From a virus: 64,000 bases of DNA. A model generated the notes under the pieces. It searched no databases. It was not told where the DNA came from and saw only the letters and a program-made list of their open reading frames with translations. Below, piece by piece: positions 3,870 through 57,191 of the stretch. The stretch lies in IMG/VR virus record IMGVR_UViG_3300027905_000001, positions 15,362 to 79,361 of that record. The stretch is one strand, 5' to 3'. Made by a program: the position numbers and the translations under genes. Each line of letters starts with the position of its first letter. The stretch's first letter is position 1.

Positions 3870-4769
3870 CTAGATACTATCCTCAGCAGCCTTGCGCCGG
3901 ATCTCTAAGTCAGCCTCATTAACTGCGGTCCTGCGCTCTGCAAGTTTAAGATTAGCGTCATCAACTTTGCGCCGATGCTGATCCGGAGTGAGGTCAAAGA
4001 AGTCCGCCAGCCGGTCAAGTGCCTTATGCTTGTCGTGGAACTTAATAGAGATACCATCCTTAGTCTGCCGAATCTCCTGCACCATCGAAGTGTCCACCTG
4101 GTCGCTGTTTTTGATCCTAACGAAGTTGACATCCTGCACCTGGTACTGACCGTCCGGGCCGACTACGCGCTGGCCGTCGAGATATACCCAATCCTGAGTG
4201 GTCCCGAACTCAAAGAAGTCTCCAGGATCGGACATTGCTATTTTTTCGTAGACCTCCAGTACATCGCGCTTGGTAAGAAAGATGTCCTGAGCTATATCAC
4301 CTTTCAGCCGCCGGATCTCTGCCGCAACCTTAACGTCTCTTAACATCCGGCTGCCCTGGACATGTGCGCCGGCCTTTGGACACCCTGCTTTTATTGCGGC
4401 CATCGTTGCGTTGTGATCCTTGACAAAGTGTAGCGCGAATAGCTGCTGCTTTTCTGTGAGCGGCGAACTCTCTACTATATAATGCGTCTCGCTCCCGGCT
4501 GCTTCTTCCGGCCGTTTCTTTCCCTGGTCCGTTGCCGCTTTCTTCCGGCCGGACTTCTTGTCCGTTGCAACGCTCTTCTTTTGCGTTGCATTGCGTTGCT
4601 TGCCTTGCGTTGCGTTCTGCGTTGCATCGTTGGCCGCTTCTGCTTTGGCCCAGTTCTCTCTGTTCTTCCGGCTGCGGATCGTGCCCGCGCTGATTCCGTG
4701 TTTTGCTGCAAGGTCCCGAAGCGTAATCTCTGTCGTCTCGTATTCTGCGCGTATTACTAGCCAATCCAT
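3870..4769 (-). CDS. terS: Phage terminase small subunit (Terminase_2-like) with N-terminal HTH
   Basis: HTH ITLRDLAAKHGISAGTIRSRK; LTEKQQLFALHFVKDHNATMAAIKAG...SRMLRDVKVAAEIRRL resembles TerS DNA-binding core. Confidence 0.65.
   Translation of the reverse strand: MDWLVIRAEYETTEITLRDLAAKHGISAGTIRSRKNRENWAKAEAANDATQNATQGKQRNATQKKSVATDKKSGRKKAATDQGKKRPEEAAGSETHYIVESSPLTEKQQLFALHFVKDHNATMAAIKAGCPKAGAHVQGSRMLRDVKVAAEIRRLKGDIAQDIFLTKRDVLEVYEKIAMSDPGDFFEFGTTQDWVYLDGQRVVGPDGQYQVQDVNFVRIKNSDQVDTSMVQEIRQTKDGISIKFHDKHKALDRLADFFDLTPDQHRRKVDDANLKLAERRTAVNEADLEIRRKAAEDSI
4582..4625. repeat. Tandem octamer TGCGTTGC (4 copies) inside terS, encoding an NATQ-rich linker
   Basis: Direct count in sequence. 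Confidence 0.7.
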
Positions 4770-16643: not shown

Positions 16644-16847
16644 TTAGAAGGGTAGCTTAGGTAATTCCTCTAGTAATGGGTTTCTACCATAAACCCTTAC
16701 CTCGCATTCATCGCAGAAGACAGGGTTTATTGGCATCCCCCTGCATCCGCATTGTTCACCTTTACAGCAAAATTCTGGTTCGTATTCGTCGTAGACTTCT
16801 ATTTCTTTGTGGCATCCATCGCATTCGTAGATTTTCAACCGAATCAC
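16644..16847 (-). CDS. Cys-rich small protein (zinc-ribbon-like)
   Basis: CDGC...CCKGEQCGC...CDEC. Confidence 0.4.
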   Translation of the reverse strand: MIRLKIYECDGCHKEIEVYDEYEPEFCCKGEQCGCRGMPINPVFCDECEVRVYGRNPLLEELPKLPF

Positions 16848-16855: not shown

Positions 16856-17374
16856 TTAATTGATATAATTTGACATTAATTTTGCCCCGGCTTCTTGTAC
16901 GACCTTAACCGCTTGTTCAAGTTCTTTATATACTCCTAGCCCTATCTGTTTTCGATTAATCATTAAGTAGGCTCGCCATTTTTTGGATGATTTGCGCCAA
17001 CTAACGCCCCTAAATCCTGAATTAGTTTTGCATTCTGCTTTTCTATTTTGCATGTTTACTGAATGAGTTACATTTCTAAGATTCCCTTTTGTATTATTTA
17101 ATGTGTCATGGTCAACGTGATCTACCACTAAATCATCGGGGCAATTGGTTATTAATCGATGTAGGCGTTTTGGTTTCAATCCTTCGCTAATCGACACATT
17201 ACTTATGGCATAAAACGAACTTGTCCCTTCAGACCAAAGAGCATGCCACTTTGCACCACCTTTTTGGGCTATCTCTAAATCCTCCCTATCAATTAAAGTT
17301 TCCATCACAGATCCATCTTCTCTATCTAAAAATATTGCCACTTTATCCCCTCTAAATTCGAATCTGTTTTTCAT
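16856..17374 (-). CDS. HNH homing endonuclease with AP2 DNA-binding domain
   Basis: HNH block LVVDHVDHDTLNNTKGNLRNVTHSVN; AP2-like FRGVSWRKSSKKWRAYL. Confidence 0.7.
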   Translation of the reverse strand: MKNRFEFRGDKVAIFLDREDGSVMETLIDREDLEIAQKGGAKWHALWSEGTSSFYAISNVSISEGLKPKRLHRLITNCPDDLVVDHVDHDTLNNTKGNLRNVTHSVNMQNRKAECKTNSGFRGVSWRKSSKKWRAYLMINRKQIGLGVYKELEQAVKVVQEAGAKLMSNYIN

Positions 17375-17422: not shown

Positions 17423-17451
17423 TTGCACTAAGGTTAAGCATGGTATATAAT
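17423..17451 (+). promoter_or_regulatory. Sigma-A-type promoter (TTGCAC-17-TATAAT)
   Basis: Consensus-like hexamers with 17-nt spacer. Confidence 0.6.
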
Positions 17452-17469
17452 ATAATTCGAGGTGAGGAA

Positions 17470-17631
17470 ATGGGAGATTTAAAAAACAGGCAAAGATATA
17501 CAACTTCCTTGGATAATGAGCTAGTGGAAAAGCTCAAAAAGTTATCAGAGAAGACGAAAATTGCCCAATCAAAGTTACTGGATGAAGCAATAGAATTAGT
17601 TCTTAAGAAATATGGGAAGCCTGATAAGTAA
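17470..17631 (+). CDS. Ribbon-helix-helix-like small regulator, paralog of 23632-23811
   Basis: RBS GAGGTGAGGAA; shares NRxR...D..L...L.KLS..T.I..SKL.DEA...LKKYG with its paralog; antisense to flanking operon. Confidence 0.5.
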   Translation: MGDLKNRQRYTTSLDNELVEKLKKLSEKTKIAQSKLLDEAIELVLKKYGKPDK

Positions 17632-17670: not shown

Positions 17671-18085
17671 TCAAAAAGGAATGTCATCATCTAAGGAAAC
17701 TCCGTGACCAAATGAGCCTTTAGCCTCACTTGAGCTATTCGAGGATTCCGATAAGTTGCTATTCTTCGGGCTAAGGAATTCCACTTCGTCGGCAATCACG
17801 TCGTATGACCTTTTTTTTATTGCCATCCTTATCCGTGTAATCACTAATCTGTAGCGACCCTGTGACAAGGGCCTTATTTCCTTTTGCTAATGCGTTTGCA
17901 CATAGCTCTGCAAGCTGTTTAAAACATTTCACGTTAATAAAATCTGTCTCTTTCTCGCCTGCGGAATTCTTAAACCTTCGCCCGACCGCTAGTGTGAAGT
18001 TGGAAATAGCAACGCCCGAAGTTCCATAGCGTAACTCACAATCCCTCGTTAAATTCCCTGACAAAATAATCTTATTCATGCTCAC
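17671..18085 (-). pseudogene. ssb: Single-stranded DNA-binding protein, reading frame broken in an A8 run
   Basis: N-terminal OB-fold in one frame; SSB tail ...DDDIPF in the next; shift at T8 run 17811-18. Confidence 0.7.
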
Positions 18086-20129: not shown

Positions 20130-20340
20130 TGTCTGAGTATCCTAATTCGTCCCAATCGAAGATACCCACGTTCGAGCCCATGTCATGTTTGGCTCTAAAA
20201 TTGCAGATCCTTTTGGTGTTGCATCGTAATTCCTCCGCTATTTGCCTGTCTGTAAGTCCGTTTAGCCATAGTTGCTCGATAGCTTCAGCTTCCATAGGGC
20301 TTATTGATTGTGCCATTTTCATTTTGTACCTCCCTAACAA
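20074..20340 (-). CDS. Small HTH protein (sigma-70 region-4 / LuxR-like)
   Basis: LTDRQIAEELRCNTKRI. Confidence 0.4.
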   Translation of the reverse strand: MLGRYKMKMAQSISPMEAEAIEQLWLNGLTDRQIAEELRCNTKRICNFRAKHDMGSNVGIFDWDELGYSDNGKRNYNKNEEAEHVKNI

Positions 20341-20668
20341 GTTTTACTCCATAAAAATCCATCAACTTCGCACATGTAGGGCAAGGTATAGGATCAACCT
20401 CATCAGCGCATACTAGATACAACTCTGCACCTTCAAGGCTTTCCCTCGCATTAATGAGTGCCATTTGCTCTGCATGCACACTAGAACATTCGGCGTAATC
20501 TCCTACGTTATGCTCTATATCCAATCTGGAGCACGTAACGCATGTTGTAGGGCTTGTATTCCATCCCTTTGATATAATCTGACCATGCAGGACGATTACG
20601 CATGCGTAGCGACGCTTGAGGCAGTTCGAGCAGGGTAATAGTTTTCGTGCTTCGTCGAAGTAGTTCAA
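20285..20668 (-). CDS. Cytidine/dCMP deaminase-fold zinc enzyme
   Basis: VHAEQ (H-A-E) and PCPTC (PCxxC) about 28 residues apart; start overlaps radical-SAM stop by 4 nt. Confidence 0.6.
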   Translation of the reverse strand: MNYFDEARKLLPCSNCLKRRYACVIVLHGQIISKGWNTSPTTCVTCSRLDIEHNVGDYAECSSVHAEQMALINARESLEGAELYLVCADEVDPIPCPTCAKLMDFYGVKLVREVQNENGTINKPYGS

Positions 20669-21390
20669 ATGTTACCCTCCATAGCTTTTCTCAAATCATC
20701 CTTGATGTAATAATTGCACCCGTGCATCTTAAGTACCATTTCGACATTCTCGCCAGTCTGTTTCCAGTCAATCTGATTCGCTCTTGAATCGTAATTCCAG
20801 CGACCAACTTTCCAAAGGTCAACGTGTTTATGGAGAATATGGATAAAGTCAAGTGCATCGGCAGGAATGATGATAGGCTCAAGACTTACCCATGTTTTTA
20901 TTCCAAGCGTTCTTGCCGTTATGATGGCAGCTATTCGATCATCTACGGGTGCTGCGCCTTTTTCCCACCGTTCAGAGCATTTGCGGACAGTCAAGGTTGT
21001 CCCGAACGAATCACCCTTTTCGTACAAGCTAAAATCTCTACTCGCCCTCATGCCGCCTTTTGTTAGAACGGTGAAGTTTGCTCCTGCGTTTTTGATGGCT
21101 TCGATAATTTCTTTGGTTGGAGTTGTGTCAATATCGCAATAAGGATCTGTTGAAAAGCATAGAAGGATATTCTTGCCTTTGAACTTACCGCTTGATAATT
21201 GCTTTTTGGTCGCTTCAACTATTCCTTCGCGCGGTTTAACGTCAGCGAAATCTTCGTTTGGTTTCCATCTGTCGTGCATCTTTTTGGCAAAGCAATAAGT
21301 ACATAAATGTGAACATCCCTCGTAGATATTAAGAGCTAAGGGTGCATATTCAAGAGCTTTTCCGCTCGGCTTATAAATCGGATTGATCAT
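20665..21390 (-). CDS. Radical SAM enzyme (SplB/COG1533-like N-terminus)
   Basis: CxxxCxxC within LNIYEGCSHLCTYCFAKK. Confidence 0.65.
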   Translation of the reverse strand: MINPIYKPSGKALEYAPLALNIYEGCSHLCTYCFAKKMHDRWKPNEDFADVKPREGIVEATKKQLSSGKFKGKNILLCFSTDPYCDIDTTPTKEIIEAIKNAGANFTVLTKGGMRASRDFSLYEKGDSFGTTLTVRKCSERWEKGAAPVDDRIAAIITARTLGIKTWVSLEPIIIPADALDFIHILHKHVDLWKVGRWNYDSRANQIDWKQTGENVEMVLKMHGCNYYIKDDLRKAMEGNI

Positions 21391-31019: not shown

Positions 31020-31415
31020 CTATTTCCCATCCTTTTCAGTTTTATTTTTCCACCACAACGGAAGATTTCTCCTAAACAAGGGCTTATCTCCATCCCAACC
31101 GTCGATATTATAAATCGGTATCATCTCCATTAACGCGACATTATGCTCCCTATTGCACCCTTCCGACTGCTCCCAAGCCCCGCATAAAAATATTGCATCG
31201 CAGCTACTTACAAGCTCCTCGCAAAAGGTCAGAGCTAATGCTCGTTGTTCTGGTACTTTGTCGCTGAGATAGGAAAAAGAGTGAACTGGCGAGATTGGGA
31301 TAACGCCGAACTTTGTTAATGCTTGGCAGATGTGCGTGATGGCTTGGAGGTTTTGCTTTTTGCCGTTGAAGGGGTGGCAGATATACACTTTTTTCATAAT
31401 TGTCCTCCTTCGCAT
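31020..31415 (-). CDS. Nucleoside 2-deoxyribosyltransferase-like fold protein (putative)
   Basis: KKVYICHPF ... AIFLCGAWEQSEGCNREH; weak similarity from memory. Confidence 0.3.
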   Translation of the reverse strand: MRRRTIMKKVYICHPFNGKKQNLQAITHICQALTKFGVIPISPVHSFSYLSDKVPEQRALALTFCEELVSSCDAIFLCGAWEQSEGCNREHNVALMEMIPIYNIDGWDGDKPLFRRNLPLWWKNKTEKDGK

Positions 31416-37986: not shown

Positions 37987-39465
37987 ATGCATGGAATACT
38001 ATACCTGCGCAAAAGCAGAGAAGATGAGCAATATGAAAAAAATACTGGCGAAGATGTTCTGCAAACCCATCGCGAACGTTTGGTTATGCTCTGTAAGTCG
38101 CGGGAAATTACCTTCGACGAACGCGCAGAGGTACGAAGCGGTGATACGATCGCAGGTCGGCCTAAATTTCAGAATATACTAGATACGGATCTCCCCTCTG
38201 GTCAATACTCTTGTATCATTGTTACTGAAATTTCTCGACTTGGCAGAGGGGACATGGAGGATGCAGGAAGAATATACAAAACCATAATCCACAACGAGAT
38301 TAAGATTGTCACGCCGAATAAAATATATGATCCGTTAAACCCTTCCGATCTTCGCCAGCTAAGGTTCGAGCTATTCATGTCTCGGGAGGAATACGAAAGC
38401 ATTAAGGAAAGACTATGGAATAATAGAAATTACCGGGCAACACAAGGTTATGCCGGCAATTATATTGTCACGCTCGGTTTTCGCCAGTCCAGGGGGATAG
38501 TCGAGATAATCCCCGAAGAGGAAAAATTAGTGCTTGAAATATTTACGATGCGCTCTGAAAATTACTCCTATCAAGAAATAGCGGATTACTTTAATTCCAG
38601 AAATTTAAAGACAAAACGCGGAACAAAGTATCATGAATCTACAATATATAAGATATTAAAAAATCCCAGGTATATAGGAGTGGCTAAGTGGCAAGGCAAG
38701 GAATATATAGCTAAGCACCCTGCGATAGTCTCATTGGACCTATGGAACTCTGCGCAGGATATCAACGCTGAAAGACATCACAAGAGACGAGGGTCAAAAA
38801 ACGATAACCCTTATCTAGTAGAGCTATACTGTCGAGAATGCGGGCAAAGGATGTACGGGGAACGCTCTACCCCGCAAAGGGTAATAGATGGTGTTCGAAA
38901 GCTATATAAAAGCAGAGACATCTATATTTGTAGGGGCAGAAAAAGCATCCCTAAATGTTGGCACCACATAGGAGCCAGCGTTGTTCACTCGACCATCCTT
39001 GATGAGCTTGGGAAGATAATATCAGATCCGCAGATTTTTCTTGAGTTAGTCAACGAGAGAGAATCAAGACTTGGCGTCGATACTAATGGTTTATCAGATC
39101 AAGTGGATGAATTAAATAAGCAAGTCAAGGATAAAAACATCCTTTTGGTAAAAATAGAGAACGATTATGAAAAAGGCGACCTATCCGCTTTGCTATATAC
39201 TAAACACGTTGAAAAAATATCCAAAGAAATAGCATCTATTGAAGGTAGGATAAAAAAAATTAAGGCCGATTTATTAAAATCAGCCATTAAGATTAGTCCT
39301 CCTATGGAATTACAATCAATTTTGAAAACATTCCTAAATAACTGGAACGCCTATCCTAATAGTGACAAGAAGCTCATCATTAGATCATTTCTTCCCAGGG
39401 TTGAGGTGAACAAGCAGGGTGAATTCTTTATCGCTATTACTTTGCCTGATTCTATCGAAATTTAG
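37987..39465 (+). CDS. Large serine recombinase (phage integrase, serine type)
   Basis: N-terminal resolvase-type catalytic domain (YLRKSREDE), recombinase domain, Cys-rich zinc ribbon, C-terminal coiled coil; 492 aa. Confidence 0.8.
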   Translation: MHGILYLRKSREDEQYEKNTGEDVLQTHRERLVMLCKSREITFDERAEVRSGDTIAGRPKFQNILDTDLPSGQYSCIIVTEISRLGRGDMEDAGRIYKTIIHNEIKIVTPNKIYDPLNPSDLRQLRFELFMSREEYESIKERLWNNRNYRATQGYAGNYIVTLGFRQSRGIVEIIPEEEKLVLEIFTMRSENYSYQEIADYFNSRNLKTKRGTKYHESTIYKILKNPRYIGVAKWQGKEYIAKHPAIVSLDLWNSAQDINAERHHKRRGSKNDNPYLVELYCRECGQRMYGERSTPQRVIDGVRKLYKSRDIYICRGRKSIPKCWHHIGASVVHSTILDELGKIISDPQIFLELVNERESRLGVDTNGLSDQVDELNKQVKDKNILLVKIENDYEKGDLSALLYTKHVEKISKEIASIEGRIKKIKADLLKSAIKISPPMELQSILKTFLNNWNAYPNSDKKLIIRSFLPRVEVNKQGEFFIAITLPDSIEI

Positions 39466-40938: not shown

Positions 40939-41166
40939 ATGGACATAACTAAAATCCAAAAAATCGTTCGCAAGGCTATCAAGGACTACGCCATTACCGC
41001 AAAGTACGATGAGGAAATTCTAGTATCATTTCTCAGCGTGGATATTTTCCGGGAGATCAACGAGGATTCCCCGGCACCTCTCTCGGATCCCAAGGCTCCC
41101 CCTCGCCGCAATACTAACCAGAATGCATTAGGTCTGGTAAATCACGAAGCAGGTGAAACGCCATGA
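40939..41166 (+). CDS. Hypothetical small protein
   Basis: ATG after GTGAGG. Confidence 0.4.
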   Translation: MDITKIQKIVRKAIKDYAITAKYDEEILVSFLSVDIFREINEDSPAPLSDPKAPPRRNTNQNALGLVNHEAGETP

Positions 41167-42491
41167 GTGAAAAATCATCGTCCGTAAAGCCCGACCTGAT
41201 CGGCTTGACATCCTCTACTCTGGTCAAACTTGGACGCTTTGCCCTACGTCATATCGGCAGTCCCAACAACTCCTATGCGAACAAGATAATGCTGAACTGG
41301 AAACGCAATGACATATGCACCGAAACCAAAGAGCGAGGCAAGGATTACACAGAGAAGAAATACCCTACGCTAGTGGAAAAGACAATGAAGGGTCATAATC
41401 GAGTACTTAGATACAAGATACCCACCGGTCTAAATCCGCAGAAAGTCATGAAATCCCTCTACGACATCGAGTTCGATCTCAAGTCAGAAGTCCTATTCAA
41501 GCGACTTGAGAACGATCCCAAAGCGCACTTCTCACTCACTATCTTATCCGGCAAACTGTTAGACATTATCAACTACTCCAACGAGGCCAGTATTACTCCA
41601 GATGGCAAGGAGTTAAGCAAAGGTCTATGGATACCTCTAGGGTGGTCAAGAAGGGGCTTGGAACAACTTAATTTAGCCTCTAGCAACAGCCCTCATCTTA
41701 TGATCGGAGGGGCTACAGGAGGCGGCAAGAGCATCCTTGGCAGGCTTATCCTTGCTACCCTCCATATCCGCTATAACCGTGATGAATGCCGACTATGGCT
41801 CTGTGACCTTAAACATGGCAACGGCACAGCAAGGCTAGGGAAAAACCCTCTCCTTGTAGATAGGACTATTTCTGATCCGGGCGAAGCAGAACAAATGATG
41901 GACGATCTCTCTGTGATTATTGGCGAGCGATATAATTTATTTAAGGAGTATGAGTGCGACGATTTACAGGCGTTTAACGAGGAATATCCAAGATTGAGAT
42001 TGCCGCGCATTGTGGTTTATGTGGATGAATTAACCAAACTTGAGGGCAAGGAGTTCTCCAGGGCTCGTGAAAAGATGACTAAAGTCACGGGGGAATCCAG
42101 GGGTGCAGGAGTGCATGTTATTATCTCTTGTCACAGGCCCACAGCTAACCTTGTGTCCGGCACGATGAAGAACAATATCTCTGCCGTTGTCGCGTTTAAT
42201 TGCAACGCTGTATCGGCTCGTGTGTTGCTTGGAGAAGATCCGGAGGATTACAAGGCAGCCAGCATGATTGATCCAGATATCGAAGGTCGAGCATTGTTTA
42301 AATTTAAAGATGAGGTATTGCTGCAGGTCCCCTACATCGACAACCATGCAATCAAGTCCCTTATGGCCAACTATCAAAAAGCGATAATTAAAGGTAAGGT
42401 CGAGCCAGTGATACAGGCTGTTATTTCCACTAGGGTGGTTGAGCACTCAGTCGGGCACTCACTCGGTCATACTATTGAGCACCCCCAGTGA
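41163..42491 (+). CDS. FtsK/SpoIIIE-family DNA translocase-like ATPase
   Basis: Walker A GGATGGGKS, Walker B VVYVDE. Confidence 0.75.
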   Translation: MSEKSSSVKPDLIGLTSSTLVKLGRFALRHIGSPNNSYANKIMLNWKRNDICTETKERGKDYTEKKYPTLVEKTMKGHNRVLRYKIPTGLNPQKVMKSLYDIEFDLKSEVLFKRLENDPKAHFSLTILSGKLLDIINYSNEASITPDGKELSKGLWIPLGWSRRGLEQLNLASSNSPHLMIGGATGGGKSILGRLILATLHIRYNRDECRLWLCDLKHGNGTARLGKNPLLVDRTISDPGEAEQMMDDLSVIIGERYNLFKEYECDDLQAFNEEYPRLRLPRIVVYVDELTKLEGKEFSRAREKMTKVTGESRGAGVHVIISCHRPTANLVSGTMKNNISAVVAFNCNAVSARVLLGEDPEDYKAASMIDPDIEGRALFKFKDEVLLQVPYIDNHAIKSLMANYQKAIIKGKVEPVIQAVISTRVVEHSVGHSLGHTIEHPQ

Positions 42492-42614
42492 TTGTACTCA
42501 ACGATTCAATGCGCTTTATAGGCTCCTTTGGTCATGCCGTGCGGTCCGTAAAGTGCTTTATTATCCTTACTTTTTTATTTTGTATTTATTTTATATTTTT
42601 GCGAGGTGAAAATT

Positions 42615-43244
42615 GTGAACTTAGTGGCATATGGCAAGCAACGAGACGAACGAATTATGGGGCTAGTAGGGCTTGGGACAGCCTTTACGCGAAGCCAAAT
42701 AGAGCGAGTTATATTTAAGGGAAGTAAGCGTAAGGCTCAGACTAGACTGCAGGTGCTATCCGATTCAGGGCGACTAAAAAAGATTATCCGCAGTCCCCAC
42801 GAACCAGCCATCTATTGCCTCAAAAAACCCCGAAATATCGATCATTATTTACTTATCAATGAAATCTATTGTGCCGTAATGTCTCAGAAAAAGTCTTGGC
42901 ATATCGTCAAGTGGCAATGGTCATATCCAATTATGGAAGGTAAGATTTGGGCAGACGCAATGGTTGATATTTACGACCAACTCAATAAGCGTAGGCATGT
43001 TATATTTGTTGAGGTTGAGCGTTACGCAGACCGTAAGTTCGAGAAGGATAAAAAGTATTCAGCCATTACCAGCGCGAACTGGACGAAAGAAGAGTGGGCG
43101 ATTAAGGAGCCTACAAGGATATTGTTCCCGGCAATCCTAGTTGTCACCGAATGCAAATTAGAGGTCAAAAGCGAGTTGGATTTCTTTGTTGCCACGATGG
43201 ACCAAGTCAAAAAAGACATTTACTCTATTATCTTAAGGAGGTAA
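42615..43244 (+). CDS. Replication-relaxation family protein (putative)
   Basis: GTG after GAGGTGA; N-terminal winged-helix-like segment; assignment from memory. Confidence 0.4.
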   Translation: MNLVAYGKQRDERIMGLVGLGTAFTRSQIERVIFKGSKRKAQTRLQVLSDSGRLKKIIRSPHEPAIYCLKKPRNIDHYLLINEIYCAVMSQKKSWHIVKWQWSYPIMEGKIWADAMVDIYDQLNKRRHVIFVEVERYADRKFEKDKKYSAITSANWTKEEWAIKEPTRILFPAILVVTECKLEVKSELDFFVATMDQVKKDIYSIILRR

Positions 43245-43248
43245 CACC

Positions 43249-43467
43249 ATGGGTAAACTAGGAAAAGTGACCACAAAGGCCACCTATGGAATCCTGAATC
43301 TGGCGATGAAACCTATTTACGATCAGATGAAAAAAGAGAGAAAAGAAGAAGTTAAAAGATGGAACAAATCGCTAGATATAGCTTCTCAGGATGCAATGGC
43401 CGAGGCTAGATATTTTGAAGTAAGGCAGCCGTTTGATTCGATTATCCACAAGCACCCATTGTGGTAG
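43249..43467 (+). CDS. Hypothetical small protein
   Basis: Track ORF. Confidence 0.4.
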   Translation: MGKLGKVTTKATYGILNLAMKPIYDQMKKERKEEVKRWNKSLDIASQDAMAEARYFEVRQPFDSIIHKHPLW

Positions 43468-43490
43468 TAATGACAATAGTAATGACTTTT

Positions 43491-43570
43491 AGCCCCTTCG
43501 TAAACCGAGGGGCTATTTTAATGCCCTGACATAACGAAACCCCAGCATTTGCCGGGGGTTAGTTTTTATT
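43491..43570 (+). terminator. Two tandem hairpin terminators
   Basis: agccccttcg...cgaggggct + ATTTTAAT; aaccccagc...gccgggggtt + AGTTTTTATT. Confidence 0.55.
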
Positions 43571-43645
43571 CTCTATTATTTATGGCTATTCGGATTATAT
43601 GGTGGAAAATGAGTTTGGAATTTCCAGTTTTATAATAAATAATTA

Positions 43646-43700
43646 CTACTATTATAGCGTTATCGCTTGACAAATTATAGCGATAACGCTATAATAGTAG
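43646..43700. promoter_or_regulatory. Perfect 22-bp inverted repeat enclosing a consensus promoter (TTGACA-17-TATAAT)
   Basis: ctactattatagcgttatcgct (43646-43667) is the exact reverse complement of 43679-43700; -35 at 43667-43672, -10 at 43690-43695. Confidence 0.75.
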
Positions 43701-43763
43701 TAACAGCTAAAGATTACATGAACCCGACAGCCCATAAGGGGCGGGGCGAGAGGAGAATATAAA

Positions 43764-44624
43764 ATGGCAAATGAAGTCGTCAAGGAATACTACAAATGGG
43801 ATGAAACAGGTGAAGCTTTTGGCATAAGTATAAGCTACGATGCCGGAGATGACTGTGGTCCAGTTGCTGGGCTTAAACTAAGTGGTGGACAACCAAAAGA
43901 AGTCAACGGTCAAAATGTCGTTTGGTTCGAAAAAACAACCAAAGGTCAGCCCGTCGCCATAAAGTATAACAGCCGTCCCGATTTAGCAGCCCTTGTGAAC
44001 GAGTATAAAAAGTTTCAGGCTGAGCAACAAACAAGGCATAATACCCGGGCTGCTGCACATCAAGCCGAGCGGGAAGCCATAGACAACCCTCTACTTGAGG
44101 ACATGGAAGCAGAAGCTGTTGAATTGCGGAAAAAGATTCCGACCGGGCATATCGAGGTTGATGTCGAGGATAATGGCAATCTTGACGGCTATCCTAATTT
44201 AAAATACTCAGTAAACGGCGTTGAATTGCCTTGGGATAAGGTCAACCATATTGGCACTGCGAGTGCGATTCGCCCAGGCGCATTAGGTTCTTTTGCTCAA
44301 ATTTATGTCGTATCTATCGCCAAGGATCAAATCGAACAAATCAAAAAAGAGCAGGAAGAGAAATCGGCAATCAACCAAGCTAAAAAAGAGGCTTACCAAA
44401 GAGAATTAACTGGGACTATAATCCCTCCGGCGGCCTTAGAGGCTTACAACTATTACCACGGTGACGCAGAACTAGCATGGGAAAAAGAAGATGAATCCTC
44501 TTGGGCTCTTATTGAACGATGGACCACTTATATCGAGGCACAACATGGGATTGCCCCTCGTAAATTACAGCACATGGTTTCGGAATCCGCGCGCGAAGAG
44601 AATTATGGGATCAATGAGGGTTAG
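43764..44624 (+). CDS. Hypothetical protein (286 aa) under the palindromic operator
   Basis: RBS GAGAGGAG; track ORF. Confidence 0.5.
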   Translation: MANEVVKEYYKWDETGEAFGISISYDAGDDCGPVAGLKLSGGQPKEVNGQNVVWFEKTTKGQPVAIKYNSRPDLAALVNEYKKFQAEQQTRHNTRAAAHQAEREAIDNPLLEDMEAEAVELRKKIPTGHIEVDVEDNGNLDGYPNLKYSVNGVELPWDKVNHIGTASAIRPGALGSFAQIYVVSIAKDQIEQIKKEQEEKSAINQAKKEAYQRELTGTIIPPAALEAYNYYHGDAELAWEKEDESSWALIERWTTYIEAQHGIAPRKLQHMVSESAREENYGINEG

Positions 44625-44645
44625 TGGAGAGAGTGTTTGAAAAAA

Positions 44646-44680
44646 GAAAGAGCCGTAATCAATCGGCTCTTTCTGGATAA
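44646..44680 (+). terminator. Rho-independent terminator
   Basis: gaaagagccg / cggctctttc stem then T-rich. Confidence 0.6.
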
Positions 44681-44784
44681 CTTTTTATTTCAATCCACGC
44701 CTTACGGCGACAATCCTTGATGGGATTTATTACCCATAATATAATCCAAATAGCAGTATATGTCAAGACTAAGGAGGGCATTTC

Positions 44785-45492
44785 GTGAAAAAGAAACATC
44801 GGTCTATTTCGCAGATACTTGATAGATCGAAATCTGCCGAATCAAGAAGAGCTATCACTATAAATTGGTCAAAGTCATGGGAAAATGAGACCATGGAACT
44901 CATACGTAACCTTGAACAGGCTGTAAGGGCCATGGATTACGATCAGCTATGCATTAATACCAGGCAGCTTAAGGCGGTTACTCAAAAACGTTTTGGAGCC
45001 CTGCCAAATATATTTATGCACCTCACTAAGGCTGGTGCCGCAGAGAAAAACCCGGAAAAAGAACCCGAACCATTAGCCAATGCAGCTGTACAAGATATAC
45101 ACAAAAAGCAGGATGTCCCAAAAGAACCAGATGAGCCGAGCCATGCGGAGGAGCAGCATGTGCCCGGAATCTGCATAGACTGTGGTGTCAGTTTTAATGC
45201 TAAAACCAGCCGCCAAAAGCGGTGCCCCGAGTGCCAAGTTGAACACAACAAGGCGTTACGGTTAGCCGCGGCCAAGGCAACTCAAGATGTCAAAAGAGAT
45301 AGGCCTCTTTTGGATATCATGGAGGGATACATTACGGTAAAAGAATGGGCGAGCAAGCACGGTAAGAGTCCGTCCAGCGCTCAGAATATATTGTCCAATT
45401 CCCCTACTCTTGTACCAGCTGCCAGAAAGGTGCGCAATCCTCGCGGCGGCGTGGATATCTGGGTCGTACCAAAAGAGACAATATGGCCTTAA
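44785..45492 (+). CDS. Hypothetical protein with C-terminal zinc ribbon
   Basis: GTG start after AAGGAGGG; CIDCG...CPEC. Confidence 0.45.
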   Translation: MKKKHRSISQILDRSKSAESRRAITINWSKSWENETMELIRNLEQAVRAMDYDQLCINTRQLKAVTQKRFGALPNIFMHLTKAGAAEKNPEKEPEPLANAAVQDIHKKQDVPKEPDEPSHAEEQHVPGICIDCGVSFNAKTSRQKRCPECQVEHNKALRLAAAKATQDVKRDRPLLDIMEGYITVKEWASKHGKSPSSAQNILSNSPTLVPAARKVRNPRGGVDIWVVPKETIWP

Positions 45493-48051: not shown

Positions 48052-48597
48052 TTACGCCACGCCTTGTACTCTTAACACTTTCATAATCTCATCCTCAAGG
48101 TTTTCTAGTTTTCCAAATTTGTAATTTATCCTATAGAGCCTTATGTTATTGTCCCTACAATACCTGTTCTTTAGGACATCATGAGCTACCGTATTCCCTC
48201 CCCACTCATCACCCTCTTTATGCTGCGCCCCGTCAATTTCGATTAAAAAGGGCCTTAATTCTCCTTGGATATAGAAATCGAACCTCAATAATTTACCGTT
48301 TAAGCCCTTTAACCCTTTAAATGTTTTTTCTTTCTGGAATATAGCATTATACCTTGTTAATATTTCTATAGCCTTTTCTTCGCCGAATGATTTTCCCGTC
48401 ATGCAATTTCGACAAATAGGGTTTTTGATTAATAGCTTTCTTTTAACAAGCATGGTGTTGTTGCATTTAGGACATAGGCATTCGATCTTGCCATATTTCT
48501 TACCTAGATTTATAAGTCCACTAACTTTTAACTTCTCTTGATTTCGTTCAAAGTTAATTTGATTAGTTATGGCTTTCTGTGCCTTAGATTTACTCAA
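48052..48597 (-). CDS. DUF559/Vsr-like PD-(D/E)xK endonuclease with N-terminal zinc ribbon
   Basis: CLCPKC...CRNC; LRFDFYIQGELRPFLIEIDGAQH; probable TTG 48597 after AAGGAG (track ORF extends to 48765). Confidence 0.5.
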   Translation of the reverse strand: MSKSKAQKAITNQINFERNQEKLKVSGLINLGKKYGKIECLCPKCNNTMLVKRKLLIKNPICRNCMTGKSFGEEKAIEILTRYNAIFQKEKTFKGLKGLNGKLLRFDFYIQGELRPFLIEIDGAQHKEGDEWGGNTVAHDVLKNRYCRDNNIRLYRINYKFGKLENLEDEIMKVLRVQGVA

Positions 48598-49074
48598 CCA
48601 CAAACACTCCTTATATACGTTCTTAAAGAAGATCCGGTAGAGGGGCCGGAGGAAGGACAAAGTTATGCCCCTCATTCGAAGAAAATGGACTGTTTTAGTC
48701 CAAAATCCAAGAATGAGAGAAGCATATTTTAATTTATCCGTGTGTCGGTTCCTCGGATATCTCAAACCTAGTTGATATGTTGCTCTCGCAAATATACGCT
48801 ACTCTACTAACGCGCCCATAGAGTGGAATGTGCGTACACCCCGTCAACACGTCACATGCTGACCGCTATTTTAACCTCCTGTATGCCGTTTAAGGGCCGC
48901 CATCGCCCAACGCAAGGTCATAGACAAAACTAGGAATTATCTCGCTTGCGCCACCAGTTTGGTTATAAGCAGCCGGTAACTGCATATAGTTTATAGTGTG
49001 TTTATACTTCCACTAGACAAACACAAAGCGACAAACCCTTGACGGCCTGTCGCTGAAAATTCCTTAATTTACAC

Positions 49075-50867: not shown

Positions 50868-51671
50868 TTACCCCACCACTCCCAACACAGCTTTCATCGT
50901 TGCCCACCGATCAGCACCAGCCAGCAACGCAACCCCACTGGGTGCACTAGAACCCCCAACCTGATACTTAGTTGTCGCCATAGCTAACAATGCAGGAGTC
51001 GCAAAACTAGCCTGTACAATCGGGCAATTAAGCTTCAATGCCAAGTCTGCCGCAATCGGTAAATCTGCGTCTCCATAATAAAGCACTAAGTAATTCATAC
51101 TTCCTCCAATCTCCGGCCAACAGCCAGAACCGTAATTAATTTCGTTTAGGTCAACACTGATACCCGCTATTTGAGTATCGTTTTGATACTGATAAATGTC
51201 ATTGCCCTCGTGTATCTCACCGCCTGACCACGCATATGTCTGCCAATAGCGGTCAACGTCAAGGGCTTGCATGACCGCGTAAGAGCCGTAAACTCCTAAG
51301 AGGTATTTGCTCCCTAATCCATCGCCCACGCCCTGGAAATAGTCCACTATGGCTCCCATATCAGTAGATTGTGCGTCGAAGTCAACCGTGAAATATATCG
51401 CTATGCCGTTTGGTGCTCTGAGGTTGACGGCAGCTGTTATGGCTTGTGCTGCGTCTGATATGCCTTGATTGTAGGTGAAATAGGATGCGGTTGTGGGATT
51501 TGTTTCAAAGATGAGGAATACGGATAAGCTTGCATTGTGGATGGCTGTGAGTTCGGTTGGAGTTAATGCGTAATCGCCAGTGAGGTAGCGGCCTACGGCC
51601 ACTACTCCATCAGCTTTTAGGACTGTTACTATTGCCGCGGTTAAAGTTGCTGCACAATCTATCGCTTCCAT
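50868..51671 (-). CDS. Endolysin candidate: glycoside-hydrolase-like (DUF1906-type) domain plus cell-wall-binding-like C-terminus
   Basis: GVVAVGRYL, YFTVDFDAQ blocks; C-terminal LLAGADRWATMKAV resembles CWB2 repeats. Confidence 0.5.
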   Translation of the reverse strand: MEAIDCAATLTAAIVTVLKADGVVAVGRYLTGDYALTPTELTAIHNASLSVFLIFETNPTTASYFTYNQGISDAAQAITAAVNLRAPNGIAIYFTVDFDAQSTDMGAIVDYFQGVGDGLGSKYLLGVYGSYAVMQALDVDRYWQTYAWSGGEIHEGNDIYQYQNDTQIAGISVDLNEINYGSGCWPEIGGSMNYLVLYYGDADLPIAADLALKLNCPIVQASFATPALLAMATTKYQVGGSSAPSGVALLAGADRWATMKAVLGVVG

Positions 51672-52648
51672 TACTTTTGCCCCGTCTCGACCTTATAACC
51701 TTCGTTTTCAAGATTAGTTACCACAAAATCAGCTTGATCCTTCGTGATCCCGTTCACTTCGACGTAAAATGTAACCCCAGTTGCTTCCTCGGGCCCTTCC
51801 TCCACTCCCATTGTCGCCAATCCAGCCGCAACGCTGTCTGCTTGTGCTTTTGTTAAGCCTGTTACACGGACAAAGTAATCCACTAGTGCGGGTGCAGGAG
51901 TTACACTTGTCAGCGCTGCGAGATCAGCCTGCAGTTGTGTGAGATTAAAACCTTCGAGCGACAGGCCCTGACCGTTCAGCATTTCCGTCGAAAGTTGAGC
52001 CCAAGCCTCATCGCAATAAGTCTCGAAAAACTCCTTGGACATTTTTTGTACTGCACCCCACGTTATAACGCTTATCCAAGTTCCATCCCAGCCGTCAAAC
52101 TCTACGTCATGACCGCCTTCGATCGTCGCACCCGGAACGACTGTCCATGGTTGTCCAGCGCTAAACTGGTCCTGCGCTGTGGATGGCACTTGTATGCCCA
52201 GTTTTACATCTGACAGCAAGAAAGCCGCTTCGAGAATTTCATTGAAATTAGTTTGGTCTAAGGCGAGATAAGCGCCGATCTTATGGCGTATGCCGTTCGC
52301 GTCGATCATACCCGTTGTCCGCATGTATTCGAGCGCTGTCCTAATATCGGTGCCCTGGTCAGAGTTTGGATCATTCGGGTTATATCCCGTGATGGCCGAA
52401 TAGTCAGCAATTGCGTTGGCATCGGTAAATTGTGCTTGCTTACTTCCTTCTGCTGTCCAAAGCTCTACGGCATGGTCGCTACCTGCGATAACACAATCTC
52501 CAAGGGTGTCATTCGCCAACATGCCGTAATTACTTACGAGTGCTTGATGTCCGAATGTTGCAGGGATAGGTGGTAAGGCAGTACCTCTGTAATTTTTATA
52601 GAGCAGGTCTTTGTGACTTGGTTTAAATGGTTTTTTACCTAGTTTCAT
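51671..52648 (-). CDS. Lysis-cassette protein with possible Cys/His peptidase motif and two C-terminal repeats
   Basis: GDCVIAGSDHAVE; repeats VTGLTKAQADSVAAGL / VNGITKDQADFVVTNL. Confidence 0.35.
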   Translation of the reverse strand: MKLGKKPFKPSHKDLLYKNYRGTALPPIPATFGHQALVSNYGMLANDTLGDCVIAGSDHAVELWTAEGSKQAQFTDANAIADYSAITGYNPNDPNSDQGTDIRTALEYMRTTGMIDANGIRHKIGAYLALDQTNFNEILEAAFLLSDVKLGIQVPSTAQDQFSAGQPWTVVPGATIEGGHDVEFDGWDGTWISVITWGAVQKMSKEFFETYCDEAWAQLSTEMLNGQGLSLEGFNLTQLQADLAALTSVTPAPALVDYFVRVTGLTKAQADSVAAGLATMGVEEGPEEATGVTFYVEVNGITKDQADFVVTNLENEGYKVETGQK

Positions 52649-53031
52649 TTTGATACACCATCCTTTAAACTTTTAAGCATCTCCGTTTGCAGGTCTAATG
52701 TATGGGCAATATGCGTCAACGCTTTATGGTCCACATCTGCCTTAGCATCCTGACGGGCCTGAGCTTTGTTCTGGCTTCTCTGTAATGCTGGAAGCGCCCA
52801 CCACTGTATCCAGTTTGACGAGATTACAGCGAGCAGTACCTTCGTCCAGTCGGGCAGGGGCAGGACCATCAACGGCAGGATAAATGCTAAGTTAAACATT
52901 ATCCGACTAGCCAAGATGTGATCTGTAAGCCAGTCGATTAGATGGTCATTCAAGCGAGCGATCTTCTTTTCGCATTGCTTGGCTTCATTGATTAATTCAT
53001 TGGGGTGTGTCACCGCATGGTGCTGATTCAA
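52645..53031 (-). CDS. Membrane protein (holin-like candidate)
   Basis: Hydrophobic core IMFNLAFILPLMVLPLPDWTKVLLAVI. Confidence 0.35.
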   Translation of the reverse strand: MNQHHAVTHPNELINEAKQCEKKIARLNDHLIDWLTDHILASRIMFNLAFILPLMVLPLPDWTKVLLAVISSNWIQWWALPALQRSQNKAQARQDAKADVDHKALTHIAHTLDLQTEMLKSLKDGVSK

Positions 53032-53527
53032 TATCTTTTAACACCTTCTCTGCTGTTTCTCCACATTCTGGTACTGGATTTTCGTTATCCTTTGCCAATT
53101 TCTGCATAATCCAAGACGGAAACGTCATGTCATGGATGCCTGTTCCACTACCACCATCCTCATGATCTACGCCAGTGTGATGGCTCTGGCAGAGACAAAC
53201 GAGGCACCTAACATCATCCACGGTGGTTAGTGGTTGATTCTTCAGGAGCCTCCCGTAGCCATAAATGTCCCACTCTTCGACGAATGTTTTCAGCTTGTCA
53301 AAATTTATAATGCTGGAAAACATCCATTCTGCCTGATGATGAGACTGAAGATCCTCGGTTGTGCCGCAAATATAGCAAAAGTAATGCCCATCCTCTTTCA
53401 GACGGGCTTTTGACTTGCGAAATTCTGCGCTCTCAGTGCGTTCGATTGTGTTGGGGTCAATGATAACCTCGTGTAGCGTTCGTTTCATTTCGTGTGCAAT
53501 CATTGCCCATTCCCCTTCTCGTTGCAC
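52997..53527 (-). CDS. Zinc-binding HNH-like protein (putative)
   Basis: CYICG...SHH and CLVCLCQSHHTGVDHEDGG. Confidence 0.3.
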   Translation of the reverse strand: MQREGEWAMIAHEMKRTLHEVIIDPNTIERTESAEFRKSKARLKEDGHYFCYICGTTEDLQSHHQAEWMFSSIINFDKLKTFVEEWDIYGYGRLLKNQPLTTVDDVRCLVCLCQSHHTGVDHEDGGSGTGIHDMTFPSWIMQKLAKDNENPVPECGETAEKVLKDIESAPCGDTPQ

Positions 53528-53823
53528 AACTGATTCAGCCGCAAATGAGCCGACTTGGTAGATTCATCGATTCGCGCAATTGCTACGGCATGATCAGAGA
53601 GTTGGGTGGAATGACCTTCCAGCTTGCGGTTTGTGTCCCGCTGTTCGAGGAGTATGTCGTCTGTGCGTTGCTTGATGTAAGTAATATCAGCCTGTTGCTC
53701 CCCGGTCTTAGCCCCTGCTGAGTATGTGTCTTTTTTTGCGCCCCGAGAATATCCCCAATAGGCAGATATGATGCCACAAATCGACCCTGCGGCTACAATG
53801 TACGAGACGGTTGTTTGATCCAC
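53500..53823 (-). CDS. Membrane-anchored coiled-coil protein
   Basis: N-terminal TM then charged region. Confidence 0.35.
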   Translation of the reverse strand: MDQTTVSYIVAAGSICGIISAYWGYSRGAKKDTYSAGAKTGEQQADITYIKQRTDDILLEQRDTNRKLEGHSTQLSDHAVAIARIDESTKSAHLRLNQLCNEKGNGQ

Positions 53824-53861
53824 TTGATCATCCCCTTTTCACCTCTTTTACTTGCTACCTG

Positions 53862-54341
53862 TTAGAATGATCCGATATAAGTTAAGAGTTTTGACCCCGA
53901 GACATCCTTTGGCGTTGGGTACTTGATCCCCGGGCAGAGATCAATGTCAGTATCGCTGTAGATACCGGCCCATAAGTTCGAGCAAATCCTCAAGTTCGGC
54001 GGTTCGCGATACGGCACAATCACGCCAAACGTGTATCTCATAAACTCGATAAAATCTAACCACCAGTCATATCTCTCGCCGACGCTGTATGTGGCTAATT
54101 CGAGTATTCTCCATCGTTGCTCGCGGGTTAGGTTGTTGTAACGAAACACGTCCGCACAGCCCTTGTACTTGCTCACGCGGGCATAACCCGTACGCCTAAG
54201 ACCTTCGGCTTCTATAAGCTCGCCGTGTCCTACATAGCCCGCCACGTGGCTATAACAGGAGTTTTCGACGCGTTCTATTGCTTCGCTGATTATACCCTTG
54301 CCGCGAACAAGGACGAGATCGCCTATGTGTAAATCTAACAT
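53862..54341 (-). CDS. Permuted papain-fold (NlpC/P60 superfamily, YiiX/C92-like) putative cell-wall peptidase
   Basis: GDLVLV...SCYSHVAGYVG and C-terminal RICSNLWAGIY; ATG 54341 after GGGAGGGAAG. Confidence 0.5.
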   Translation of the reverse strand: MLDLHIGDLVLVRGKGIISEAIERVENSCYSHVAGYVGHGELIEAEGLRRTGYARVSKYKGCADVFRYNNLTREQRWRILELATYSVGERYDWWLDFIEFMRYTFGVIVPYREPPNLRICSNLWAGIYSDTDIDLCPGIKYPTPKDVSGSKLLTYIGSF

Positions 54342-54360
54342 CTTCTTCCCTCCCTTCAGA

Positions 54361-54388
54361 CAATAAAAATAACCCCGTGTTGGGGTTA
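54361..54388 (-). terminator. Rho-independent terminator (minus strand)
   Basis: taacccc/ggggtta stem with U-run. Confidence 0.6.
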
Positions 54389-54412
54389 AGGTGTAAACGA
54401 CCAACGCCAGGG

Positions 54413-54580
54413 TTAATTCCCGGCGTTCTTTTCTTTTTCAATCAAAATATTAACAATCACGCTCACTGTGCGCCTTTGCTTCTCAGCTTTTTCCTGTAAC
54501 CAAGCCAATATTTCTGGTTCAAAGTAAATTGCCTCACGAATTTTCTTATCTGACTTAATTGGCCTCCCTCTCTCAGCCAT
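54413..54580 (-). CDS. Ribbon-helix-helix (CopG-like) small regulator (55 aa)
   Basis: ATG after AAGGAGTG; KKIREAIYFEPEILAWLQEKAEKQRRTVSVIVNILIE; not in track. Confidence 0.45.
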   Translation of the reverse strand: MAERGRPIKSDKKIREAIYFEPEILAWLQEKAEKQRRTVSVIVNILIEKEKNAGN

Positions 54581-54644
54581 ATCGATCACTCCTTAAAGTA
54601 ATTATACAGCATTAAAAATATTTTGCAATACCTTAAATTATCTA

Positions 54645-54673
54645 TTGTAAAGCATTTTGAGGCATGTTATAAT
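54645..54673 (+). promoter_or_regulatory. Sigma-A-type promoter (TTGTAA-17-TGTTATAAT)
   Basis: Downstream motif TATAATAAGTTAAGATC identical to 4836-4852. Confidence 0.55.
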
Positions 54674-54706
54674 AAGTTAAGATCAAAAACAGAGGAGGAA
54701 GCAAAG

Positions 54707-54910
54707 ATGGTAAAGAGCGACAAGGAATTCCATGACCTAATGATTCAGTTTGAGAAAAATGCAAAAGACATAACCTACGGACACATTGTAGAAAGGGACA
54801 ACTCAGGAATAAAGGGCGTTTGGTATACCGATGGGTACATAAACACTTTATTTGACGCATATATGCACGGATACGAATACGCAAAATGCTTGGTTAACCA
54901 ACTCGACTAA
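54707..54910 (+). CDS. Hypothetical small protein (moron module)
   Basis: ATG after GAGGAGGAAG. Confidence 0.45.
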   Translation: MVKSDKEFHDLMIQFEKNAKDITYGHIVERDNSGIKGVWYTDGYINTLFDAYMHGYEYAKCLVNQLD

Positions 54911-54951
54911 AAAGGCCAGCTGGACAAATACCGGCGCAAGGAGTAAACCTC

Positions 54952-55107
54952 ATGAAACAACTAACCTGCACCTGTAGTCATACACCAAAGCAACCCAAGT
55001 GTAATCAAAACTGCACCTGCAATAAATGTGGCAAAGAGTACTACTACTCTAAGCCGCTCGATAAATGGATGTTTGCCCACAGAACGCACAGTGCGAAGGA
55101 GGAATAA
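54952..55107 (+). CDS. Cys-rich small protein (51 aa)
   Basis: CTCSH...CNQNCTCNKCG; not in track. Confidence 0.35.
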   Translation: MKQLTCTCSHTPKQPKCNQNCTCNKCGKEYYYSKPLDKWMFAHRTHSAKEE

Positions 55108-55109
55108 TT

Positions 55110-55298
55110 ATGGATTACGAAAAATTATGGAGCGAACTCAGGGAGCGTTTATTTACTGACGCAGAGAAGGATATCAGCAATGACTTAAAGGTCCATATCT
55201 GTATACACGTTACCGAGATGATGGGCGAAATGGAGCAAGATAAAAAGCACGAATCGTACCGTAGCGAGTTGAACGCACAGGAAAGCACCCGTCCTTAG
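55110..55298 (+). CDS. Hypothetical small protein
   Basis: ATG after GAAGGAGG. Confidence 0.4.
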   Translation: MDYEKLWSELRERLFTDAEKDISNDLKVHICIHVTEMMGEMEQDKKHESYRSELNAQESTRP

Positions 55299-55418
55299 CC
55301 TGGCAGCCGAACGAGTGCTTAAGATAACACCGGAGTGTCGCGGTTATTATACCATGGCGCTCTGGTTTTTGCGTTGTTAATACAGGACTTTACTTATATC
55401 GTGTCTTTAGCGAACCAC

Positions 55419-55871
55419 TTATTGAACCATAACAGCTACCGTAGCAACAAAATTACCGTCAACGGTTGCAATCATCACATCGACCGTACCTATCGCTACA
55501 GCAGATATTAACCCTGAACTCGACACAGTTGCAATAGCTGTATTTGTACTGATATAAATTAACCCTTGATTGGTTGCATTGGTAGGCGTAACAACAGGTG
55601 TAAGTTGTTGTGTCGTGCCATCTGCGATTGTAAATGTTGGAGGGGAAACGCTTACGCCCGTTACTGGCACTGTCGCTACTTCTGCATAATTACCGCTTTG
55701 GTAATCTACGCCTATTTTAAAAACGTCTAAAGCAGTAGGCAGGGTTACGAACACTCCCGAACATTGTAGGTGTATAGTTCCTGTTGGGTCAACGATAGAC
55801 GGTGTAAATGAGATTGAAGTTGTACCATTTTCGTTTGTTACTTTTTGAGTTACGTGTAAATTTACAATCAT
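55419..55871 (-). CDS. Tail-associated protein with bacterial Ig-like (Big_2) domain
   Basis: VTGVSVSPPTFTIADGTTQQLTPVVTPTNATNQ...TVSSSGLISAVAIGTV. Confidence 0.55.
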   Translation of the reverse strand: MIVNLHVTQKVTNENGTTSISFTPSIVDPTGTIHLQCSGVFVTLPTALDVFKIGVDYQSGNYAEVATVPVTGVSVSPPTFTIADGTTQQLTPVVTPTNATNQGLIYISTNTAIATVSSSGLISAVAIGTVDVMIATVDGNFVATVAVMVQ

Positions 55872-55890
55872 TTTTAGTTGCCTCCTAAAT

Positions 55891-56649: not shown

Positions 56650-57145
56650 TGACGAGAGTTAAGCTATCACCAATAGCGGTCATTTTTACAGGTATTGCAG
56701 ATTCCCACCCACACCTAGTGCCACTACTTGCACCACTGCCGATAACTTCTTTCCAGTTTATAGCCGATCCATCTTTGATTAATGCTTTTATGTCATTTCC
56801 TGCGCTACCTCCTGAGATTACTACCTCAATAGCTGTTACGTAGATGCTTTTACCTGTTACGCTTGCGATTGTAAGAGTTTGCGGAGAGTTTGATGAGCTA
56901 TCTTGAGTTACGCAAGAGACGTTCGTTAAACTCCCAGTAATGGTCATTTGCTGAGGAACAGGCGGTTGCCATGCTGTTCCATCGAAATTCCATGTGCCGC
57001 CTACGCCGTCTAGTACCTTACAGGTTGATCCTGCTTGCAACGGATGCCCATTCGCATCGACAAGAGGCTTAGTGTCTGCCGTATAGCATTCGTAATCACG
57101 CGGATAGAGCACGCCTCCACTACGAACTACTTCAATCACTGCCAT
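56591..57145 (-). CDS. Tail fibre-associated protein
   Basis: Track ORF, context. Confidence 0.4.
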   Translation of the reverse strand: MAVIEVVRSGGVLYPRDYECYTADTKPLVDANGHPLQAGSTCKVLDGVGGTWNFDGTAWQPPVPQQMTITGSLTNVSCVTQDSSSNSPQTLTIASVTGKSIYVTAIEVVISGGSAGNDIKALIKDGSAINWKEVIGSGASSGTRCGWESAIPVKMTAIGDSLTLVIDAGGTGVVTTANIAFGAM

Positions 57146-57191
57146 ATAATCATCTCCTTTTTATCTAGCGTTCGGCACCATCCAAGGTGTT

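Follow-up and report, generated by a model that had tools for sequence, protein, structure and literature searches.

The poly(A) pseudogenes of endosymbionts, as Tamas et al. reportedly found in 2008, are disrupted at the tract and partly rescued by transcriptional slippage. Programmed transcriptional slippage has been described at the A9 of Thermus thermophilus dnaX, the T9 of Shigella mxiE and the A9 of the Firmicute IS1447 (PMC1088944, PMC6211511). At programmed sites of this kind, the run and the frame transition are conserved, and both products, or the ratio between them, are functional. For the A9 of Clostridium thermocellum IS1447, 9 of 52 cDNA clones carried A8 and 8 of 52 carried A10, and A7 was sufficient for slippage (PMC6211511). 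A mutant allele of human apoB with an A8 run yields about a tenth of the full-length product; selection against such runs is evident from about 9 nt in many bacteria, and functional use is recognized by the conservation of both the run and the extended frame among homologs (PMC1088944). Another class consists of open reading frames disrupted at poly(A) or poly(T) (PMC1088944). In this class, a one-base indel lies in an A run of at least eight within an otherwise intact and conserved coding sequence, the frame downstream is undamaged, and some of the transcripts could regain the frame through polymerase slippage. A different route is the -1 frameshifting of the E. coli dnaX type, at an A AAA AAG heptamer in the zero-frame register with a stem-loop downstream.

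The gene described here, a prophage ssb in the 64,000-nucleotide stretch of viral DNA that was analysed (the window), has something in common with each of these systems. As at the programmed slippage sites, an A run lies in a coding sequence and the longer product needs an mRNA with an altered number of A residues; the run, however, occurs in this sequence alone, and a core strand is missing from the unshifted product. The indel, the length of the run, the conserved intact coding sequence and the undamaged downstream frame are all those of the disrupted reading frames, and polymerase slippage could restore the frame here likewise. The difference is that this is a silent prophage gene, occurring once and dispensable to the host, and that A8 is at the low end of the efficient range. 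The dnaX heptamer is present in identical form and in the correct register, but in this gene the -1 frame ends (GHTT*), it is the +1 frame that holds the SSB tail, and no stem-loop follows. We interpret the locus, with a probability of roughly 0.6, as a real and recent one-base frameshift that inactivates the prophage ssb, most likely through replication slippage from A7 to A8.

The ssb gene occupies 17671-18085 on the minus strand. Its reading frame opens with the ATG at 18079 and is normal from MNKIILSGNL to ...YTDKDGNKK, after which it runs into eight A residues. The coding strand at the break is GAT AAG GAT GGC AAT AAA AAA AAG GTC ATA CGA CGT GAT TGC CGA CGA AGT GGA ATT CCT TAG. The parts of the gene are the following:

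17771-18079, minus strand: 5' part of ssb in the zero frame; authentic SSB sequence extends over residues 1-89, residues 90-102 (KVIRRDCRRSGIP) come from read-through out of frame, and the frame ends at the TAG at 17771-17773.
17811-17818, minus strand: homopolymer of eight A residues in the coding strand (T8 in plus-strand terms), with GG after it; the extra base is located here, and in the zero frame the run forms an A AAA AAG heptamer.
17671-17811, minus strand: 3' part of ssb, read in the +1 frame; its first codon is AGG (R90) and its stop the TGA at 17671-17673, as placed by alignment to relatives.

In the zero frame, the stop comes 13 codons past the A8 run; the open reading frame from 18079 to 17771 encodes 102 amino acids from the ATG, or 104 if a GTG at 18085 is taken as the start, its last residues being ...DKDGNKKKVIRRDCRRSGIP*. 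In the +1 frame, no stop interrupts the reading from 68 nt before the run as far as the TGA, and the translation is ...KKRSYDVIADEVEFLSPKNSNLSESSNSSSEAKGSFGHGVSLDDDIPF. Past the run this frame continues AGG TCA TAC GAC GTG ATT GCC..., that is R-SYDVIADEVEFLSPKNSNLSESSNSSSEAKGSFGHGVSLDDDIPF, to 17671, and it carries ...SYDVIADEVEFL...DDDIPF to the same end. Thus the acidic tip typical of the SSB family is present, in the +1 frame only, and no single uninterrupted frame spans the OB fold and the tail, the surplus base lying at 17811-17818 or in the GG that follows. A preliminary description of this DNA had placed the break within the A8 and the canonical tail, down to DDDIPF, in another frame; both the sequence and the open reading frames of the minus strand agree with it, the tail being found in the +1 frame and ending at 17671. 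The same description spoke of an OB-fold N-terminus upstream and of a mere tail downstream. This anatomy is right in outline, but it understates the damage, because the final OB strand is also in the tail frame. Indeed, the 3' part encodes most of the last beta-strand of the fold (SYDVIADEVEFL), a Ser/Asn-rich disordered linker and the tip DDDIPF.

Deletion of one base restores an SSB of 135 amino acids whose spacing is that of every relative. With PF00436, the Pfam profile of the homotetrameric SSBs of bacteria and phages (gathering cut-off, 26 bits), the truncated product scores 94.6 bits (E 4.3e-27) over profile positions 1-93 of 104, and the repaired product 106.5 bits (E 9e-31) over positions 1-104 of 104, both being above the cut-off. 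Intact relatives of 74-80% identity match the repaired protein over residues 1-135 without a gap, as do SSB cores of solved structure through residue 111 (7d8j, E 5e-28; 5yyu, E 2e-26). The division of this ssb between two frames is not a matter of chance.

Which base is in excess can be asked by DNA alignment with three intact relatives. Ten bases (AAAAAAAAGG) separate the conserved AAT (Asn) from TCA TAC in the window, against nine (for example AAG AAA AAC) in the relatives. Dropping one A gives KKR-SYDV and dropping one G of the GG gives KKK-SYDV, either of which has the length seen in relatives. The residue altered by this choice is variable among them (Y or N), so that both repairs fit. 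The earlier proposal that removal of one A makes the SSB contiguous holds, with the reservation that the surplus base is not uniquely an A. On mutational grounds, slippage from A7 to A8 would be far more likely than the duplication of a lone G.

To place the lesion in the fold, an AlphaFold model was made of the closest intact homolog, P0002, whose residues are numbered as in the window protein as far as 102 and whose sequence around the site is GNKKNSYDVIADEVEFL. Mean pLDDT is 82.5 (about 86-92 in the core). Strands are modelled at residues 3-10, 15-18, 24-37, 43-53, 69-82 and 88-101 (pLDDT of about 90 in the last) and a helix at 54-63, and from residue 102 on the tail is disordered. The two frames of the window part at residue 90, inside the strand modelled at 88-101, and the zero-frame product consequently replaces 12 of the 14 residues of this strand. 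As modelled, the OB barrel is closed by a long hairpin of which the last strand forms the returning arm; the linker and the acidic tip are lost together with this strand. The zero-frame product is very probably non-functional. It could be compared with Bacillus subtilis SsbB, likewise a short SSB (about 100-115 amino acids) without an acidic C-terminal tip. SsbB, however, keeps a complete OB fold (PDB 3vdy aligns to query residues 2-106), whereas the window product diverges at residue 90; a functional, tail-less SSB of this type was rejected since the last OB strand is lost.

The relatives of this gene are uninterrupted. A protein search returned 803 homologs; three of the 120 listed fall short of full query coverage (97-100% in the others), and the closest of these 120 are 128-136 amino acids long. 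Two of the three incomplete entries are 123-residue forms that start later, and the third, the window's own entry, is the sole one in this list without the C-terminal part. Loci with homologs, 145 in number, were taken from genomes, metagenomes and Logan assemblies; one of them, the Logan contig L001, is from the same organism, which leaves 144 for comparison. L001 alone shows a second tblastn segment in another frame, and none of the 144 homologous loci does. Nor does any of the 144 carry an A run of seven or more in a 14-codon window around the site: the maximum is six, reached in 14 loci, and the run is of three or fewer in 108. The closest intact relatives read AAC AAG AAA TAC TCG, AAT AAG AAA AAC TCA or GTG AAA AAA TAC TCG at this place, the nearest ones breaking up the A run with G, C or T. 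At the C-terminus, 92 of the 145 fetched loci (L001 included) end in LPF and 27 in IPF.

Further copies of the locus were sought in several collections. The DNA had no match among 50,697 phage records (blastn in 'distant' mode), and an exact-pattern scan of metagenome and genome collections, with A6 to A12 and G or GG variants, found no other copy. The three possible intact alleles (KKR, KKK and KKKR) are absent as exact sequences from a collection of about 15 billion proteins, which likewise has no exact entry for the GTG-start truncated form or the 65-residue tail reading frame. Protein-seeded scans of the metagenome and genome collections gave relatives of at most 80% identity, all uninterrupted, and no copy of this phage at more than 80% identity was found in the collections searched. 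Since neither a frame change nor a long run nor a second copy was found in relatives and collections, this one sequence is, as far as these comparisons reach, the sole carrier of the long A tract with its frame shift.

The source of the DNA is the metagenome-assembled genome (MAG) SbF1, 'Ca. Desulfosporosinus infrequens', a peat-soil bacterium, and the ssb lies inside a prophage. The zero-frame product is identical to SPF51175.1, whose gene lies on a contig of 123,551 bp; both GenBank and MicroScope already carry it under the name 'SSB (fragment)'. The ssb sits in the early recombination/replication module of a temperate phage integrated in this host. The landmarks are the following:

37987-39465, plus strand: serine integrase (PHROG 95).
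17440-17631, plus strand: Arc-like repressor, in the opposite orientation to ssb.
16856-17374, minus strand: HNH endonuclease.
3870-4769: small terminase.

Further genes of the module are Rha/anti-repressor genes, two DNA methyltransferases, an SbcC-like protein and a RecT-like annealase, as well as a replication initiator, a DnaC-like loader, a radical-SAM protein, a dCMP deaminase and a Holliday-junction resolvase.

Several features of the surroundings deserve mention in their own right. The 64-kb window contains three genes for HNH/homing-type endonucleases, at 16856-17374, 48052-48765 and 52997-53527, all on the minus strand. The first of them is directly downstream of ssb, where the relatives L003 and L004 have an unrelated gene of 120 amino acids; just downstream of it in turn, at 16644-16847 (minus strand), is a 67-residue, Cys-rich open reading frame with multiple CxxC-like motifs. 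The radical-SAM gene overlaps the dCMP deaminase gene (20285-21390, minus strand). Together with 31020-31415 (minus strand), in an early module that has a nucleoside 2-deoxyribosyltransferase-like gene and two methyltransferases, this region could be a cassette for nucleotide or DNA modification. The window also holds more than one mobile element: 41163-45492 (plus strand), with an FtsK/SpoIIIE-like gene and a weak match to a replication initiator, may be an integrative element, and 50868-63785 (minus strand), a block with tail genes, an Ig-domain protein of 1041 amino acids and an endolysin, resembles the end of a second prophage, beside the integrase of the prophage that carries ssb.

In the metatranscriptomes of the source study, a supplementary table gives 'no detected expression' for SBF1_50059, which is this ssb, and for two neighbours on its scaffold. 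The early module was silent under all the conditions sampled. The host's own ssbA_1 (137 amino acids) was highly expressed in the same study. With the prophage ssb silent and a host ssb expressed, the lysogen does not depend on the former, and the mutation is thus free of cost to it.

The age of the lesion can be approached through the tail frame. Synonymous sites are saturated with respect to the nearest relatives, a state in which most dN/dS ratios are not computable, and raw counts of differences were used. Over the 16 codons that follow the shift, there are 9-11 synonymous differences from the nearest relatives against 1-2 nonsynonymous ones; the tail frame is without a stop and the DDDIPF tip is intact. 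The scarcity of nonsynonymous changes and the intact tip argue that the tail frame has been under purifying selection for nearly all its history. This pattern suggests either that the lesion is recent or that the tail is still translated, and the undamaged frame fits just as well with a tail that is still being translated by way of slippage.

It is unlikely that the lesion is an artefact of sequencing, library preparation or assembly, the true DNA having A7, or A8 with a single G, and the gene being intact. The break does sit in one of the window's two longest homopolymers, the repair of a single base yields a perfect SSB, and the MAG was assembled from DNA-SIP heavy fractions with an older assembler. 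SbF1 was sequenced on the Illumina HiSeq 2000 and co-assembled with CLC, at about 34x in the DNA-SIP sample (PMC6372793). The same A8 is present in a Logan assembly of SRR6195974, which matches the window at 100% identity across 5,497 bp, with 0 gaps. At about 34x, an Illumina HiSeq consensus seldom miscalls an 8-mer. The second assembler is unrelated to the first and gives 0 differences in 5.5 kb, but the two assemblies probably share one read set, and a library-level artefact or a mixed A7/A8 population therefore keeps some probability. Also against an artefact, the intact allele is absent as an exact sequence among the 15 billion or so proteins.

The window itself provides an internal control. 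It has 14 homopolymers of at least seven, two of them of at least eight, and among these the ssb run is the only one with the signature of a frame change; the other A8 and all the runs of seven are in frame, and no second frame break was found in the 64 kb at homopolymers of six or more. The other A8 (39252-39259, plus strand) is in frame within the serine integrase, at about residue 422, and the PHROG 95 alignment, which covers integrase residues 2-479, crosses it, so that A8 runs are not systematically miscalled. Among ten open reading frames tested from overlapping or adjacent same-strand sets, no split gene pair was detected, the members matching different families or none. We found no error-prone platform, no disagreement between assemblies and no set of genes broken at homopolymers. 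Pervasive homopolymer errors were rejected on the grounds that the integrase A8 is in frame and no other broken gene was detected, which also count among the reasons for considering an artefact unlikely. An error specific to one assembler can practically be dismissed, and the homopolymers show no sign of a systematic problem.

The Logan contig L001 (32.6 kb) ends at 17583, 88 nt past the ssb stop, inside the Arc-like repressor frame and just before the HNH gene. This end may be a branch in the assembly graph, caused by strain heterogeneity or by a repeated or mobile HNH gene.

Another explanation, which we regard as quite improbable, is that the allele is polymorphic and reversible, the A tract acting as a phase-variation switch by replication slippage and the consensus having caught the 'off' state of a mixed population. 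Homopolymers of seven to eight are hypermutable by replication slippage (PMC1088944), and the strain heterogeneity of the MAG is estimated at 10% (PMC6372793), a degree of mixture to which the end of the Logan contig, as a hint of a graph branch, could be added. The undamaged tail frame would agree with a gene that is at times switched on. Phage SSBs are reported as triggers of several abortive-infection defence systems, and given such SSB sensing, the loss of SSB could sometimes benefit the phage. Both assemblies, however, come from the same sample and both have A8, no A7 or A9 allele appears in any assembly or protein collection searched, and the relatives keep no long tract at the site, unlike classical contingency loci. 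In one population at one time point, such a switch has the same appearance as a simple mutation.

A selected, programmed recoding of the gene is very unlikely. Full-length SSB would then be made on purpose and in a fixed proportion, whether through transcriptional slippage on the A8 or through a +1 or -2 ribosomal shift on A AAA AAA AGG; the corollary would be a low, regulated dose of SSB or the making of two products, the ribosomal shift being one of tRNA-Lys. The A8 stands at the frame junction and is of the length expected of slippage sites (about 7-9 or more), the tail frame is intact and conserved, the A AAA AAG heptamer is in frame, and both the slippage at A9 and A7 in C. thermocellum and the partial rescue of the apoB A8 allele are precedents (PMC6211511, PMC1088944). 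In a Firmicute, a run of eight A residues suffices for RNA-polymerase slippage to be measurable, so that the ssb may not be fully dead. The conservation that marks functional sites is nevertheless lacking, since the run with its frame transition is found at 0 of 144 loci, where A runs reach six at most. Furthermore, the zero-frame product, without its last OB strand, is implausible as a second isoform.

The signals of ribosomal frameshifting do not favour recoding either. The heptamer fits X XXY YYZ in the zero-frame register, but an efficient -1 shift would lead to GGT CAT ACG ACG TGA, or GHTT*, a dead end (KKKGHTT*) after four codons, for which reason a dnaX-like -1 frameshift was rejected. 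Access to the SSB tail needs a +1 or -2 ribosomal shift, or an mRNA with A7 or A10. Folding of the downstream sequence over 71 and 111 nt revealed no stimulatory RNA structure (z of -0.02 and -0.29 relative to shuffled sequence), and this candidate was rejected as well, since the region folds no better than its shuffles. The AAGGA upstream is explained as part of the D-K-D-G codons, and it is common to unshifted relatives. The broader idea of the A8 as a functional switch, whether for a slippage-dosed SSB or for a reversible on/off state that evades SSB-sensing abortive infection, is highly improbable, nothing speaking positively for it.

The preliminary description had set an error, a pseudogene and slippage-dependent expression side by side and chosen none of them. 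The true answer is very probably among the three, and they can now be ranked: an error is disfavoured by the agreement of the assemblies and the in-frame state of the other A8, programmed slippage is unsupported (0 of 144 loci, no RNA structure), and a real frameshift fits everything.

For a real, recent frameshift, the following course of events can be proposed. Replication slippage would have lengthened a lineage-specific A7, turning AAA AAA AGG into AAA AAA AAG G. The resulting frameshift truncates the SSB in the hairpin that closes the OB barrel, 13 unrelated residues taking the place of the last strand, and removes the linker and the partner-binding DDDIPF tip, leaving a zero-frame product that very probably does not function. 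The lysogen would tolerate this lesion, the module being silent and the host's own ssb expressed. On induction of the prophage, RNA-polymerase slippage on the A8 with the loss of one A could give a minority of mRNAs for full-length SSB; such a rescue would be incidental and unselected rather than designed. The direction of the mutation, the loss of function and the rescue by slippage are what we infer from the DNA and its relatives.

Beyond the existing label of a fragment, the lesion is now located precisely, as one base too many at A8/GG within the hairpin that leads into the last OB strand, and there are indications that it is probably real rather than an assembly error and that it is not a conserved recoding site. 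Frameshifts at homopolymers are commonplace in prophages, and the significance of this one is small beyond annotation. If the A8 were a switch after all, slippage would control the expression of a core protein of phage replication, a new case of its kind that might bear on SSB-sensing anti-phage defence.
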